A stretch of 57,619 bases of DNA. Origin: Bacilli bacterium. Lineage in GTDB: Bacteria; Bacillota_I; Bacilli_A; RFN20; CAG-288. The notes beneath the pieces are model-generated. The model saw only the letters and a list, made by a program, of their open reading frames with translations, searched no databases and was not told the DNA's origin. The position numbers and the translations under genes are program-made. Of the stretch, positions 40,816-45,679 are shown in pieces. Position 1 is the first letter of the stretch. Every line of letters begins with the position of its first letter. The DNA lies in assembly GCA_017470005.1 (NCBI GenBank), contig JAFUFH010000091.1, positions 1 through 57,619 of the forward strand, read 5' to 3'.

Positions 40816-42220
40816 TGCCGTCTTATTTTTACCAGTTTCGCCTGTAACTCAAAGCAACCTCGCGTTGCTTGAGTTTTCTTTATCTTTCTTTGATTCTGTC
40901 TATGTGCTACCTCTTTATGATGCAAGAGACAGGGAAGAAGAAAAAGAATTTGCTTCTCTTACCCTTCGTTCCTTAAAGAAGAATTATCCTAAGATTGCCT
41001 TTGGAGAGCTTTCTGTTTATGATGTGGAAAAGAGATTCCTTTCTAAAGAAGTGATAGAGAAAATTCCGGAAAGTTATACCCAATATTTTGATGGGAAACT
41101 TCATCCGATTGAAGGCGAGATTCTTCCACTTCTATGGAATTATGAGAAGACAAGAAACGGTTCCAAATTAGATTTATCTAGAGAAGATATGGATGAGATT
41201 GCTGATCATAAACTCTATTTCTGCTTAGAGCTAGCAAAAATGGAGAAAGAACATCGCTATCTGCATTCCGTATCGGTTGCAAAAACAGCATACGATATCG
41301 CACTAGCGAATGGATTAGATGGAAGGAGAGCGTATCTAGGCGGACTTCTTCACGACTGCGCAAAAGATTATCCTGATGAAGAACTTCTTGCTCTCATACA
41401 CGAGGAAATGAGCGAATATGAACCGATTCCTTCTTTCGCTCTTCATCAATTTGCGGGAAAGATCTTCGCACAAAGGAAATTCGGTTGTGAAGATGAAGAG
41501 ATTCTAAACGCCATCTGCTTCCACTGCACGGGAAAGAAAGAGATGAGCGATTATGAAAAAATCATCTATGCCGCCGATAAGGTGGAACCTACTCGTCCTT
41601 TTGAAACCAAGATTGGAAGAGATGCATGTCTAAACGATCTAGAAAGCGGGTTTGTCACCACCTTAAAACAACAAATACGATATTTTAAAGAAAGAAACAT
41701 CTCTTACAGTGAATATAGACTCAGCAAGGAGATGTATCAATATTATCTCGGAGAATATAACATGTTAAAAAAATCAGTACAAGAAAAGAAAACGAAATTA
41801 GAAAACAAAGGCTCTATCCGTGCCTTAAGACCTCTTCACATCGCCCAAGATTTATCTTGGAACTATGGCGAAGATGTTGTGGTTTATGACGTCAGAGAAA
41901 AGACTCCTTATGTCTCTTATTTCATCTTAGCTTCCGCTTCTACCGATAGAAGACTCAGAGCCTTAGTTGGCACCGCCAAAGAGGCTTTATACAACAATTA
42001 CAAAGATGTGGACCACACCGAAGGTAGAAATGATTCTACTTGGATCTTAGTGGATGCTCATGACATTGTTGTCCATCTCTTCACCAAGGAAGAGAGAAAG
42101 AGAGTCGATATGGATGCTCTCTACGCCGATTGCCCTCACAAGATTGTCATCAGCAAAGAAGAACCCAACTATCGCAAGAGAAAGAAAGCCGAAAGCCAAG
42201 ATAACAACTGGTACGAATAA
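40796..42220 (+). CDS. Fusion of degenerate NadD-like domain, YqeK HD hydrolase and RsfS
   Basis: NadD-like N-terminus without HxGH motif, RYLHSVSV..LLHDCAK HD domain, then DVREK...WILVDAHDIVVH RsfS domain from Met at 41762. Confidence 0.8.
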   Translation: MPLSNSNAVLFLPVSPVTQSNLALLEFSLSFFDSVYVLPLYDARDREEEKEFASLTLRSLKKNYPKIAFGELSVYDVEKRFLSKEVIEKIPESYTQYFDGKLHPIEGEILPLLWNYEKTRNGSKLDLSREDMDEIADHKLYFCLELAKMEKEHRYLHSVSVAKTAYDIALANGLDGRRAYLGGLLHDCAKDYPDEELLALIHEEMSEYEPIPSFALHQFAGKIFAQRKFGCEDEEILNAICFHCTGKKEMSDYEKIIYAADKVEPTRPFETKIGRDACLNDLESGFVTTLKQQIRYFKERNISYSEYRLSKEMYQYYLGEYNMLKKSVQEKKTKLENKGSIRALRPLHIAQDLSWNYGEDVVVYDVREKTPYVSYFILASASTDRRLRALVGTAKEALYNNYKDVDHTEGRNDSTWILVDAHDIVVHLFTKEERKRVDMDALYADCPHKIVISKEEPNYRKRKKAESQDNNWYE

Positions 42221-42239
42221 ACAGTATAAAGGGGACAGG

Positions 42240-42914
42240 ATGAAACGTTATTTAATTGTTTGTGCGATGCAAGCAGAGATCGATGGTATCTTCTTGCACT
42301 GCAAACCCAAAGATATGGGAAATAATCTCTACTTAATCGAAGGAGAGAATTTCCAAGCTTATGTCATGAAGTCAGGTATCGGTAAAGTTGCCATGGCTTA
42401 TAAGCTTGGTTCTTTCTTGAATGATTTCCAAGTGGATGAGATCATCAATGTAGGTGTCGCTGGTTCACTCTCAAGTGAACTGAAATGTTTTGATACCTTA
42501 GTCGCTTCTAAGGCTGCTTATTCTGACGTTGACTTAGTCTCCTGGGGATTACCCTTTGGTCAGATGCAAGGATGCCCTCTTTATTTTGAATGTGATAAAG
42601 AAGGAATTGAAAAAGCTCTCACCTTCCCAAAGAAGAAACTCAAGACTGGCTTGATTTTGACCTCTGACACTTTTGTTACCAAAGAGAATCTTAACACCAA
42701 GTTCTACGAATTCTTTGAAAACCCTGTCTCTTGTGATATGGAATCTGCTGCGGTGGGACAATGTGCTTTCTTAGCAAATAAACCTTTCATGATCATCAGA
42801 ACCATTTCTGATGATACCACGGTGGAAGATAACACCAGATCTTATGAAGAGCAACTCAAAGAGAGCTGTGCCATGACTGGTGAAATCGTTTATTACTTGA
42901 TTAGTAACTATTAG
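42240..42914 (+). CDS. mtnN: MTA/SAH nucleosidase
   Basis: AMQAE, SGIGKV, INVGVAG, TSDTF, DMESAAV, RTISD; real start ATG 42240. Confidence 0.88.
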   Translation: MKRYLIVCAMQAEIDGIFLHCKPKDMGNNLYLIEGENFQAYVMKSGIGKVAMAYKLGSFLNDFQVDEIINVGVAGSLSSELKCFDTLVASKAAYSDVDLVSWGLPFGQMQGCPLYFECDKEGIEKALTFPKKKLKTGLILTSDTFVTKENLNTKFYEFFENPVSCDMESAAVGQCAFLANKPFMIIRTISDDTTVEDNTRSYEEQLKESCAMTGEIVYYLISNY

Positions 42915-43085
42915 TAAATATTTGGTACTAATAAATGACTAAAATACTAAAATCGTGAAAAATAGTAGTTAGTCAATAATTAGTACTAAAAATAAACTAA
43001 ATCTAAATATAATCTGACAAGTATAGTTAGCCAGAAAAGATGAATTTAAACGCGATTTAGGATTAGTAGAAAATTAGTACATTTT

Positions 43086-43125
43086 AAAAAGAGAAGTGAT
43101 TCAACCAATGGATCACTTCTTTTTT
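43086..43125. terminator. Bidirectional terminator-like hairpin between convergent operons
   Basis: A5-G-AGAAGTGAT...ATCACTTCT-T5. Confidence 0.7.
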
Positions 43126-43238
43126 AGTATTTGGATGATGTTGTCAGTAGGGAAGAACTATTTAGGTATAAGTAAAGTTAAAAGAAATGGTATTTGTAGG
43201 ATGATTAAGGAATTCCGAAAATTTCCCTTAAATAGTTT

Positions 43239-43266
43239 ACTTCGTATAATAGATATTATGTTAATA
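43239..43266 (+). other. dif: dif chromosome dimer resolution site
   Basis: ACTTCGTATAA-TAGATA-TTATGTTAATA, 11+6+11 layout resembling B. subtilis and E. coli dif; gene orientation flips here; xer gene 1.5 kb away. Confidence 0.88.
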
Positions 43267-43530
43267 AAAAAAGAAAAACAAAAACAAGAGAAGCAAAACT
43301 ATATAAATAATAGTTCGTATACGAACAAATATTTGGAGTGTGACTTCATATAAATTTCTCCAAGATCCTGGTAAATCTATATGGAACTACTAATTTAAAA
43401 ATTAGTAATAAAAAAGTACTAATTATTAACTAAATCTAAATTTATTATTATCTTATCATTTTTCTGATAATACTACTAATTCTTATAGCTAGTTAATAAT
43501 TAGTACTAATAATATACTAATTAATTTTGT

Positions 43531-44745
43531 TTACTTATCTTCTACTAATTCTTTAATGACGTGTCCGATTTGATTTTCAGAACCTTTTAATCCGAAGTTA
43601 GCTAAGATGGTCTTACCCATGCAACCGAAGGAATCGACTTCTTCAATCTTTCTTCCGTTCTTGAAACCCTTGGAGTAAGAGAAGAGAGGGACTCTCTCTC
43701 TGGTGTGGTCTGTCCCATACCAAGTAGGATCGTTTCCATGATCGGCGGTGATGAGAAGCAAATCATCTTCCTTTAAGTTCTTCATCAATTCGCCTAAGTC
43801 CTGATCAAATTCTTCAATGGACTTTCCATAACCTTGAGGATTTCTTCTGTGTCCGTATAAGACATCAAAGTCAGCGAGGTTAACAAAGCAGAGTCCAGTG
43901 AAGTCTTTGTTCTTAGCAATCTCGATGGTTTGAAGCATACCATCGTGGTTAGAATCGATATGAGAGGATTCATCCATGCCGTTTCCAGCAAAGATATCAT
44001 GGATCTTACCCACAGCGATGACTCTATATCCTGCGTCTTGTAAATCATTTAAAGAAGTGCGGCCAGCGGGAGCTAAAGCGTAATCTCTTCTCTCTGTAGT
44101 TCTCTTGAAGTTTTCTTTGGTTGTTCCAACAAAGGGACGAGCGATGACTCTTCCGACTTTCCATTCTTTTTTCATGGTGATCTCACGGGCGATCTCACAA
44201 TCTCTATATAATTCCTCTAAAGGAACAACAGCGGTATTGGCAGCGATTTGAAGAACAGAGTCTGCGCTAGTATAAACGATAAGAGATCCATCTCTAGTTT
44301 GTTCTTCACCAAGTTCGGTCAAAATGACGGTACCAGATTGAGAATAGTTACCAATCAACTTTCTACCCGTTCTAGCAGAAAGTTCATCCATTAATTCCTT
44401 CGGGAAGCCAGTGTCCGTGAAAGTGACTAAAGGTTCACTAGTGAGGATACCCATCATCTCCCAGTGTCCGGTGAGAGTATCTTTTCCGTTAGAGGCTTCT
44501 CTCATGGTTTGAACATAAGCGTGAGGGTGGTCAACTTTGCTTGCTCCTTCAATTTCAGGGCAGAGGTCATAAATACCTAAAGAATTGATATTGGGGATAT
44601 TTAAGCCATGACATTGTTGAGAGACATGGAGCCAGGTGTTGCTTCCCACATCATTGTGACCGGCGTTAAAGAAGCGGTCTGCATCTGGTTCACTCCCGAT
44701 GCCAACGCTATCCATGACGATAGCAAATATACGTTTGAATTTCAT
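43531..44745 (-). CDS. deoB: Phosphopentomutase
   Basis: VMDSVGIG, GKDTLTGHWE, YTSADSVLQIAA, RVIARPFVG, YGHRRN, TADHGNDP, DHTRE. Confidence 0.94.
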   Translation of the reverse strand: MKFKRIFAIVMDSVGIGSEPDADRFFNAGHNDVGSNTWLHVSQQCHGLNIPNINSLGIYDLCPEIEGASKVDHPHAYVQTMREASNGKDTLTGHWEMMGILTSEPLVTFTDTGFPKELMDELSARTGRKLIGNYSQSGTVILTELGEEQTRDGSLIVYTSADSVLQIAANTAVVPLEELYRDCEIAREITMKKEWKVGRVIARPFVGTTKENFKRTTERRDYALAPAGRTSLNDLQDAGYRVIAVGKIHDIFAGNGMDESSHIDSNHDGMLQTIEIAKNKDFTGLCFVNLADFDVLYGHRRNPQGYGKSIEEFDQDLGELMKNLKEDDLLLITADHGNDPTWYGTDHTRERVPLFSYSKGFKNGRKIEEVDSFGCMGKTILANFGLKGSENQIGHVIKELVEDK

Positions 44746-44791: not shown

Positions 44792-45679
44792 TTAATCAAC
44801 TCTGTTTTTTCTTCTCATGCTCTCTTCATAGACTTCTTGTTCTTTTTTGTGAGACAAATGCGTGTAGATTTGGGTGGTTTTGATATCGGAGTGACCAAGA
44901 AGTTCTTGCACGGATCTTAAATGTGCGCCGTTTTCTAATAACAGTGTGGCAAAGGAGTGACGAAGGGAGTGAGGAGATATCTCTTTTTCAATACCAGCAT
45001 CTTTGGCATATTTTTTGATGCGAAGGAAGAAATATTGTCTTGAGATATTTTTACCATTGCTGTGAAGAAAGAGATTGGGGCTTTTGCTTTTGATATTCTT
45101 TCGGATATTGTCATAATACAGTTGCAGTATCGATAGGGCATCTTGGCTGATAGGAATGAGTCTTTCTTTGCTTCTTTTTCCTTTGACTTTGATGTAACCT
45201 CCTGTCAAAGAGAGCGCATCTTTTCTTAAGCTGCAAGCTTCAGAAACACGTAGTCCACAAGCAAAAGATACTTCCATCAGAGCTAAATCTAATAATCCTC
45301 TCTCTTCTTGGATGGGAATGACAGAGAAGAGACGTTCAATCTCTTGCGAATTGAGATAGGTAGGAAGGTGTTTTTCTTTTTTAGGAACATATAAATCCGA
45401 CAATACTAAATCGATTTTACCTTCTTTTTTTAAATAAGATAAAAACCCTTTGATGACTGTTCCTTTTCTCACTAACGATGCATTCTTTAAGCCTTTGGAT
45501 TCTAACACAAAAAGATGGTCGTTTAAATCTTTGGATTGAATGCGTTGAATATCTTTGTTTTGTATGGAATCACAAAAAGCATAGAGGTCTTTTTGATACG
45601 CTTCTATGGTGTTTAAGGCATCGCCTTTTTCGGTGATGAGATAAGTGAGATATTCCTCTATGGCTTCTCTAGTTTTCAT
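44792..45679 (-). CDS. xerD: Tyrosine recombinase XerD/RipX-like
   Basis: GLRVSE, KGKRSKER, SPHSLRHSFAT, LLGH, TTQIYTH; xer-deoB order as in B. subtilis ripX-drm. Confidence 0.85.
   Translation of the reverse strand: MKTREAIEEYLTYLITEKGDALNTIEAYQKDLYAFCDSIQNKDIQRIQSKDLNDHLFVLESKGLKNASLVRKGTVIKGFLSYLKKEGKIDLVLSDLYVPKKEKHLPTYLNSQEIERLFSVIPIQEERGLLDLALMEVSFACGLRVSEACSLRKDALSLTGGYIKVKGKRSKERLIPISQDALSILQLYYDNIRKNIKSKSPNLFLHSNGKNISRQYFFLRIKKYAKDAGIEKEISPHSLRHSFATLLLENGAHLRSVQELLGHSDIKTTQIYTHLSHKKEQEVYEESMRRKNRVD

Follow-up and report, generated by a model that had tools for sequence, protein, structure and literature searches.

The window analysed in this study (57,619 nucleotides) is contig C34 of G000, a 1.93-Mb draft genome in 92 contigs (38% GC). 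It carries a chromosomal dif site, the core at which the XerC and XerD recombinases (XerCD) act, and on both sides of dif lie dense arms of short repeats built from the half-site TAGTA (TACTA on the opposite strand). These arms are the subject of the present work. Relatives identified via XerD include metagenome-assembled genomes from rumen and gut, as well as Candidatus Alectryobacillus merdavium (classed as Bacilli incertae sedis). The locus contains the following features, in coordinates of the window.

42054..42914, + strand: pfs-like gene for a nucleosidase with a PNP_UDP_1 domain, conserved as left neighbour of the arms
42901..43079: left arm, nine TTAGTA/TACTAA hexamers, six on the + strand and three on the − strand
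42912..42941: unit L1, TAGTAAATATTTGGTACTAATAAATGACTA, one mismatch to the unit, 31.8 bits
42970..42999: unit L2, TAGTCAATAATTAGTACTAAAAATAAACTA, perfect unit, 35.5 bits
43063..43079, + strand: inner left element, direct pair TTAGTA-N5-TTAGTA pointing to dif
43087..43125, + strand: terminator-type hairpin between the left arm and dif, 17-nt arms with 88% complementarity, then a T run
43124..43129, + strand: lone TTAGTA after the hairpin
43239..43266, + strand: dif core of 28 bp, read directly as ACTTCGTATAA (XerC arm)-TAGATA (spacer)-TTATGTTAATA (XerD arm)
43388..43548: right arm, eight TTAGTA/TACTAA hexamers, two on the + strand and six on the − strand
43403..43432: unit R1, TAGTAATAAAAAAGTACTAATTATTAACTA, one mismatch, 23.9 bits
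43490..43519: unit R2, TAGTTAATAATTAGTACTAATAATATACTA, perfect unit, 34.9 bits
43531..44745, − strand: deoB (phosphopentomutase), the right neighbour
44792..45679, − strand: xerD-type recombinase gene, 295 aa, without an additional arm-binding domain

The dif site is located at the junction of + strand genes (left) and − strand genes (right), and such convergence of genes is expected of a replication terminus. The genes around it are all of housekeeping type: yqeH, nadD/yqeK/rsfS and pfs on one side, deoB, xerD and dinB on the other. The xerD-type gene is 1.5 kb from dif, and an xerC-like paralogue is found at C17:1825-2712. The pfs-like gene probably has its real start downstream of 42220. 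Its stop codon TAG (42912-42914) falls inside the first half-site of L1, and in several relatives the array likewise begins at the stop codon; at the opposite end the final hexamer of the right arm (43543-43548) is inside the 3' end of deoB. Relatives carry hairpins similar to that at 43087..43125 in the equivalent position.

The first-pass annotation of the window had reported roughly 25 TAGT/ACTA words in the two arms and almost none in the central ~300 bp. Counting gave 27 words in 42900-43080 and 43380-43560 together and five in the central part, and strict half-sites TAGTA/TACTA are absent from 43131-43379. The two longer repeats it had listed were also recovered, the word AATAATTAGTACTAA in both arms (42975-42989 and 43495-43509) and, at exactly the coordinates first given, the repeat AGTACTAA-N6-ACTAAATCTAAAT (42982 and 43415, 433 bp apart). 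The left arm contains 10 half-sites against 2.2 ± 1.3 (maximum 7) in shuffled sequences, and the right arm nine against 3.2 ± 1.5 (maximum 10), with 2000 dinucleotide-preserving shuffles per arm. The 1.93-Mb genome contains 479 TTAGTA/TACTAA sites; when they are counted in 200-bp windows, the arms are the top windows with eight sites each, and the best window elsewhere has three. Of the 420 windows with at least 75% AT, nearly all contain zero or one such site. The 10-mer TTAGTACTAA occurs twice in the genome, once per arm, and a position weight matrix built from other species only finds five sites scoring at least 20 bits in G000, all of them within the arms. No complete unit is found elsewhere in the genome, all units being within 350 bp of dif.

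Underlying the arms is a 30-bp dyad unit, TAGTA-N6-TAGTACTA-N6-TACTA, which contains four half-sites, two forward and then two reverse, at offsets of 0, 11, 14 and 25 bp (pair counts 177, 118, 146 and 52 in 35 genomes). The spacing of 11 bp between half-sites on the same strand was observed 177 times in these genomes, other spacings being far rarer. The spacers are unconserved, and their self-complementarity is 0.467 compared to 0.431 in shuffled spacers. In G000 each arm contains two units; single half-sites pointing to dif and one direct pair complete the layout. Short conserved half-sites that follow a lattice of one helical turn, while the spacers vary freely, are characteristic of a multimeric protein bound to DNA and not of a hairpin.

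This arrangement is conserved among the relatives. Wherever dif is assembled in the genus (34 genomes), it is flanked by two to four units per side. The unit pattern (with at most one mismatch) is present in 39 of 45 genus genomes as 2–6 copies clustered on one contig, as well as in three of the four genomes of one sister genus, where dif again has two to four units per side and G159 has seven units around it; a control pattern gave a single match, in the genus genome G019. For dif itself, a 24-nt pattern was found exactly once in 34 of the 45 genus genomes, with no matches of its control. Isolated copies of the 10-mer elsewhere in relatives have no flanking half-sites and are chance matches. 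The half-sites occupy the intervals from −350 to −60 and from +25 to +260 relative to the dif centre, leaving dif bare, and stop sharply beyond.

The positions of the units relative to dif recur. The first right-hand unit is centred 38–39, 47–50, 58–61, 68–71, 76–80 or 89–92 bp from the dif centre in 28 of the 33 genomes (counted by hand), shifting in steps of ~10 bp, or about one helical turn. On the left, unit positions −255, −197 or −186, and −104 recur to the base pair among species in which the sequence in between can no longer be aligned. Distances from unit to unit are quantised as well (47/58/69 and 83/94 bp). The layout is asymmetric: on the XerC side, the element closest to dif is usually a direct pair of half-sites at 11 bp (>11>) or TAGTACTA-N3-TAGTA, whereas the XerD side starts with full units. 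The pair at 43063..43079 of the window is the counterpart of the '>11>' or '>3<8>' element found on the XerC side in most relatives. Half-sites without an inverted partner point to dif from both sides, with ratios of 92:25 (left) and 21:58 (right). This mirror polarity exceeds what is expected from the G/C skew of the arms (p = 8e-7 on the left and 2e-3 on the right, under a G/C-composition null), and in G000 alone it is the same, at 2:1.

The observed motif anatomy, genome uniqueness, conservation, phasing and polarity bear on the first proposal for the arms, namely that they are arrays of binding sites for a terminus-organising or Xer accessory protein. Half-sites conserved against variable spacers, the 11-bp lattice, and a genome-unique, helically phased position beside dif in two genera give good support to the view that the arms are likely protein-binding arrays functionally tied to dif. 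They fit a Xer accessory or terminus-organising protein, and the first proposal is partly supported. We infer binding by a protein of winged-helix or tandem-binding type (OmpR/PhoB-like or RTP-like), with Xer recombination as the target.

The arms are an elaboration of an older, order-wide element, which the first-pass annotation had missed. Sister genera devoid of arms, among them that of Candidatus Alectryobacillus merdavium, have two to four direct TACTA repeats with an 11-bp period, located ~115–150 bp from dif and confined to its XerD side. Most of these TACTA words start at residues 4, 6 or 7 modulo 11 from dif (counted by hand), and the register is kept even in a genome where the module is 77 bp closer to dif. 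In three sister genera and in the genus member G005 a DnaA box (TTATCCACA or a close variant) precedes the repeats at +96 to +110 in a fixed orientation. Loci L243-L254, L260 and G062 show the same order, a DnaA box and then 2–4 TACTA repeats at ~+96 to +170 from dif. The layout is similar to that of oriC, where a DnaA box is followed by CTACTA-type repeats, but the sister-genus version is at the terminus instead.

The direct repeat is not limited to these genera. The pattern TACTA-N6-TACTA-N6-TACTA was found in 78 of 201 genomes of the order, a control pattern giving ~10 matches, and in several families a single genome has multiple triple repeats, which usually share a contig. Where the dif contig is large, in four sister-genus genomes, all eight extra triple repeats are located within 13 kb of dif, and six of the eight are oriented to it. 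Other families of the order have 3–12 triple repeats per genome, clustered in a 10–60-kb stretch of a single contig and often switching strand along it (e.g. G090:C1:142140-195335, G128:C2:120379-162538, G119:C26 and G125:C13). The genus of G000 is almost without triple direct repeats, and the word persists there only as a palindromic cage at dif. The two-sided arms are an enlarged version of an older TACTA direct-repeat module, and so the protein that binds them is probably ancient and shared throughout the order.

The presence of arms coincides with an unusual FtsK. The FtsK gamma domain scores 47–76 bits in genera of the family without arrays and 45–101 bits in other families; in the array-bearing sister genus it scores 34–39 bits, and in the genus 17–44 bits or is undetected. 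The domain is still conserved within the genus, with the recognition helix xISxxKADQ; the canonical gamma recognition helix is RIGYxRAAR. In G000 the FtsK of 949 aa is encoded at C41:168-3017, and its gamma region (C41:2823-2957) scores 20.9 bits to PF09397, for which the cut-off is 30.6. The FtsK match in g19, another genus of the family, ends before the gamma domain.

Among the closest known counterparts are the accessory sequences of plasmid Xer sites, psi of pSC101 (acting with ArcA and PepA) and cer of ColE1 (with ArgR and PepA). Like the arms, these are phased protein sites in non-coding DNA next to a 28–30-bp XerCD core, and their geometry matters. Recombination at psi requires ArcA, a member of the OmpR family that binds two to five direct repeats at 11-bp spacing, the same step as in the TACTA lattice, and psi can stand in for dif on the E. 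coli chromosome (PMC5357621, PMC3798270). The helically phased distance from the core is shared by the arms, given the ~10-bp steps and the lattice register across genera in hand-counted clusters that were set post hoc. There are also clear differences. The plasmid systems have ~180 bp of accessory DNA on the XerC arm only, whereas arrays are found here on both sides and in sister genera on the XerD side only; moreover, the arms are chromosomal, with a different motif and a palindromic unit of four half-sites. The analogy with cer and psi, proposed at the first pass, is therefore imperfect.

The arms may be viewed with some reserve as a platform for an oligomeric protein working stereospecifically with XerCD at dif, in the manner of psi and cer accessory DNA. 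This is the reading we tentatively prefer, though we would put it somewhat below an even chance. The single-turn register with dif, the difference between the XerC and XerD sides, and the bare XerCD window point to a stereospecific recombinase complex. In such a model one sequence-specific, oligomerising protein would bind the arms, each protomer reading a 5-bp half-site TAGTA. Protomers would stack on one face of the helix every 11 bp, so that a 30-bp unit would hold four of them. Two to four units per side would then build a nucleoprotein structure around a bare window of ~85 bp (from about −60 to +25 of the dif centre) containing dif and XerCD. This structure might assist in the pairing or shaping of dif sites, and strand exchange starting from the XerD side might be permitted or steered by it. 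Since the enlargement of the arrays coincides with the atypical FtsK gamma domain, it may mean less dependence on the usual FtsK-gamma control.

Several observations weigh against this platform model. Accessory DNA is present on both sides of dif, and in the older form on the XerD side, while cer and psi have it on the XerC side only. The triple TACTA repeats at 4–13 kb from dif in sister genera are not explained by accessory DNA. Within the genus, stronger arrays accompany weaker gamma domains only as a trend (Spearman −0.33, p = 0.06) that is confounded by phylogeny. The phasing was counted by hand, its clusters were defined after the data had been seen, and the species are not independent; moreover, all genomes are uncultured draft assemblies. 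Finally, no binder was identified. The synteny of the dif region revealed no DNA-binding gene adjoining dif, the weight-matrix scan of G000 and the stray 10-mers of relatives gave no copy of the motif outside the arms that could be autoregulatory, and a subtractive comparison of the whole genomes G165 (with arrays) and G062 (without arrays) yielded no convincing candidate.

In the latter comparison tblastn wrongly scored DnaD, Fur and TetR as absent, probably an effect of composition-based statistics on a genome with 29% GC. With blastp and no composition correction, only DeoR paralogues and a SpoVS-like protein remained as nucleic-acid binders. Two array-less genera have SpoVS too, and overall it occurs in four of the seven genera of the family. 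The SpoVS homologue of G000 (C89:18483-18818; PF04232, 69 bits) has a short acidic C-terminal tail and occurs in apparently non-sporulating Bacilli with small genomes. An order-wide binder would account for the failure of a search for proteins specific to array-bearing genera.

Particular candidates were considered as well. RTP was ruled out: no PF02334 homologue scored above the cut-off in any of 41 genomes (G000 and 40 relatives), the best E-value of 0.013 belonging to unrelated long reading frames, while the B. subtilis control was detected. Rok prefers TACTA/AACTA (PMC6212790). It was ruled out too, as its winged-helix domain (PF23159) gave nothing above the cut-off in 67 genomes of the family; one recurrent weak match to the model, examined in G062, was judged by eye to be an RNA polymerase delta-like protein. 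The DnaD recognition element of B. subtilis contains TACTA (PMC10201434), but DnaD binds single-stranded DNA with a 6-nt period and is also present in the array-less genome, and thus was excluded. An arm-binding domain on XerC or XerD was excluded since both proteins have the ordinary length of ~295 aa. Low-affinity DnaA boxes on the 11-bp lattice were rejected because at most 3–5 of 9 positions match (compared by hand). The OmpR family, which includes the psi accessory factor ArcA, binds direct repeats at 11-bp spacing (PMC3798270, PMC5357621). There are two OmpR-family regulators in G000 (C16:11167-11850 and C19:65766-66467), and nothing links either of them to the motif.

A broader and more doubtful formulation makes the arms part of a terminus system not described before, shared by an order of uncultured Bacilli from gut and rumen, in which a new protein would bind a polar 11-bp TACTA lattice phase-locked to dif. 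In the genus this lattice would have become a two-sided cage with the loss of the canonical gamma helix, and dif would be run, like psi, by accessory DNA and protein instead of KOPS-guided FtsK; or else the system might be a third, independently evolved fork trap, a few hundred base pairs wide and centred on dif.

The main rival to the recombination platform, though itself unlikely, is that the arms are replication terminators similar to RTP/Ter of B. subtilis, that is, two opposed fork barriers a few hundred base pairs apart, so that forks fuse at dif, with the sister-genus sites within ~13 kb serving as back-up barriers. In B. subtilis a ter site spans 32 bp and takes up two RTP dimers; terI and terII stand in opposed orientation ~0.1 kb from each other, and there are only a few such sites, all of them in the terminus region (PMC13220808, PMC10331603). 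The 30-bp unit with four half-sites would match ter in size and stoichiometry, and the two systems further share a small number of terminus-specific sites, which may form opposed groups around dif, an innermost pair ~0.1 kb apart and occurrence in Bacillota (PMC13220808). The mirror polarity of unpaired half-sites about dif would fit fork barriers, as would the distal triple repeats of sister genera, which are all on the dif contig within 13 kb and mostly point to dif. The Bacillus Ter consensus itself contains the words ACTAA and GTACTAA. However, no RTP homologue exists in the 41 genomes searched, and the anatomy differs. A Ter site consists of two tandem dyads (A and B sub-sites, one dimer each), while the units described here have two forward and then two reverse half-sites; being dyad-symmetric, they show no obvious polarity, and the arms are polar only in part. 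Their better-kept half-sites face outwards, which, if strong half-sites are equated with B sites, is the wrong orientation for a trap that admits forks. The units also lie close to dif, at 350 bp or less, and in tight phase with it. Neither the single-turn register with dif nor the conserved difference between the XerC and XerD sides is expected of a fork barrier, and in the older form the module adjacent to dif is on one side only.

It is rather improbable that the arms act as a terminus handle of centromere or matS type, with no direct effect on XerCD, whether in cohesion of sister termini, in anchoring of dif at the septum, or in stopping or unloading FtsK or SMC. Two arms of 11-bp phased repeats around a core do resemble plasmid parC centromeres. 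Protein-binding sites limited to the terminus are known as matS (bound by MatP) and, in B. subtilis, as XDS (bound by XerD). In this respect the arms are similar, but matS and XDS are single sites distributed over hundreds of kilobases, whereas those of the arms all crowd into the 350 bp adjoining dif to its left and right, and their motif is unrelated to a dif half-site. The matS analogy of the first-pass annotation was therefore discarded together with a macrodomain of matS type, since every unit is clustered at dif and none is spread elsewhere in the genome. TAGTA points to dif from both sides, as in elements met by motors travelling from origin to terminus; a polar word of this kind, densest near dif, is shared with KOPS and SRS, the guides of FtsK and SpoIIIE, and the FtsK gamma domain that reads KOPS is atypical in the same genera. 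Yet KOPS and SRS are single 8-mers, while the arms form a multi-protomer 11-bp lattice with palindromic units. A KOPS-like guide was rejected, the word being neither frequent nor skewed across the genome: 17 of the 27 TTAGTA sites in the window belong to the arms, the remaining 57 kb having just 10. Helical phase between the arms and dif suggests that the dif complex is contacted directly, and a handle has no known partner protein.

Finally, it is very improbable that the arms lack a role in DNA–protein recognition and are 3'-untranslated hairpins or terminators in the transcripts that converge from pfs and deoB, operators for these genes, or repeats decaying in AT-rich DNA: although both arms fold better as RNA than shuffled sequences (z = −3.8 and −4.8) and the left arm has the pfs stop codon on one side and a terminator hairpin on the other, arrays of similar palindromic units fold by construction, the spacers are nearly without compensatory pairing, a known RNA family was rejected for want of any Rfam match, both genes have the arms downstream and not at their promoters, the arms stay beside dif in species where the right-hand neighbour gene is different, and conservation of half-sites and lattice alone across two genera rules out neutral decay.

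Chromosomal dif is usually described as a bare 28-bp site under the distant control of FtsK and KOPS, accessory DNA being a plasmid feature (PMC5357621). Our literature searches on the motif and on arrays flanking dif found no published description of either. If the recombination-platform reading holds, chromosomes would also be able to build a local nucleoprotein machine around dif. The 30-bp unit provides a handle for finding a new terminus protein in a large group of uncultured gut bacteria, and the older and newer forms in sister genera make up a natural series for the evolution of this control and for whether it takes the place of FtsK-gamma functions. The same series bears on whether fork fusion, dimer resolution and decatenation share the same few hundred base pairs.

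Some further observations concern dif and its immediate surroundings. In the window, 60 bp to the right of the dif centre (43313-43326), there is a perfect palindrome GTTCGTATACGAAC formed by two XerC-arm cores. It recurs (at +45) in one other species only, G018, and hence is not part of the general architecture. The relative G056 (locus L034) has two identical copies of dif (C16:16-39 and 334-357) 318 bp apart with array units between them, and a third copy at a contig end (C28:19-42); these could stem from duplication in tandem, from a small element integrated by Xer, or from a repeat in the assembly. In G062 and its relatives, sister genera share a short word just after dif (at ~+30 to +60), of the type AATATAGGC / AAATAGGCA, which is followed by a T run.

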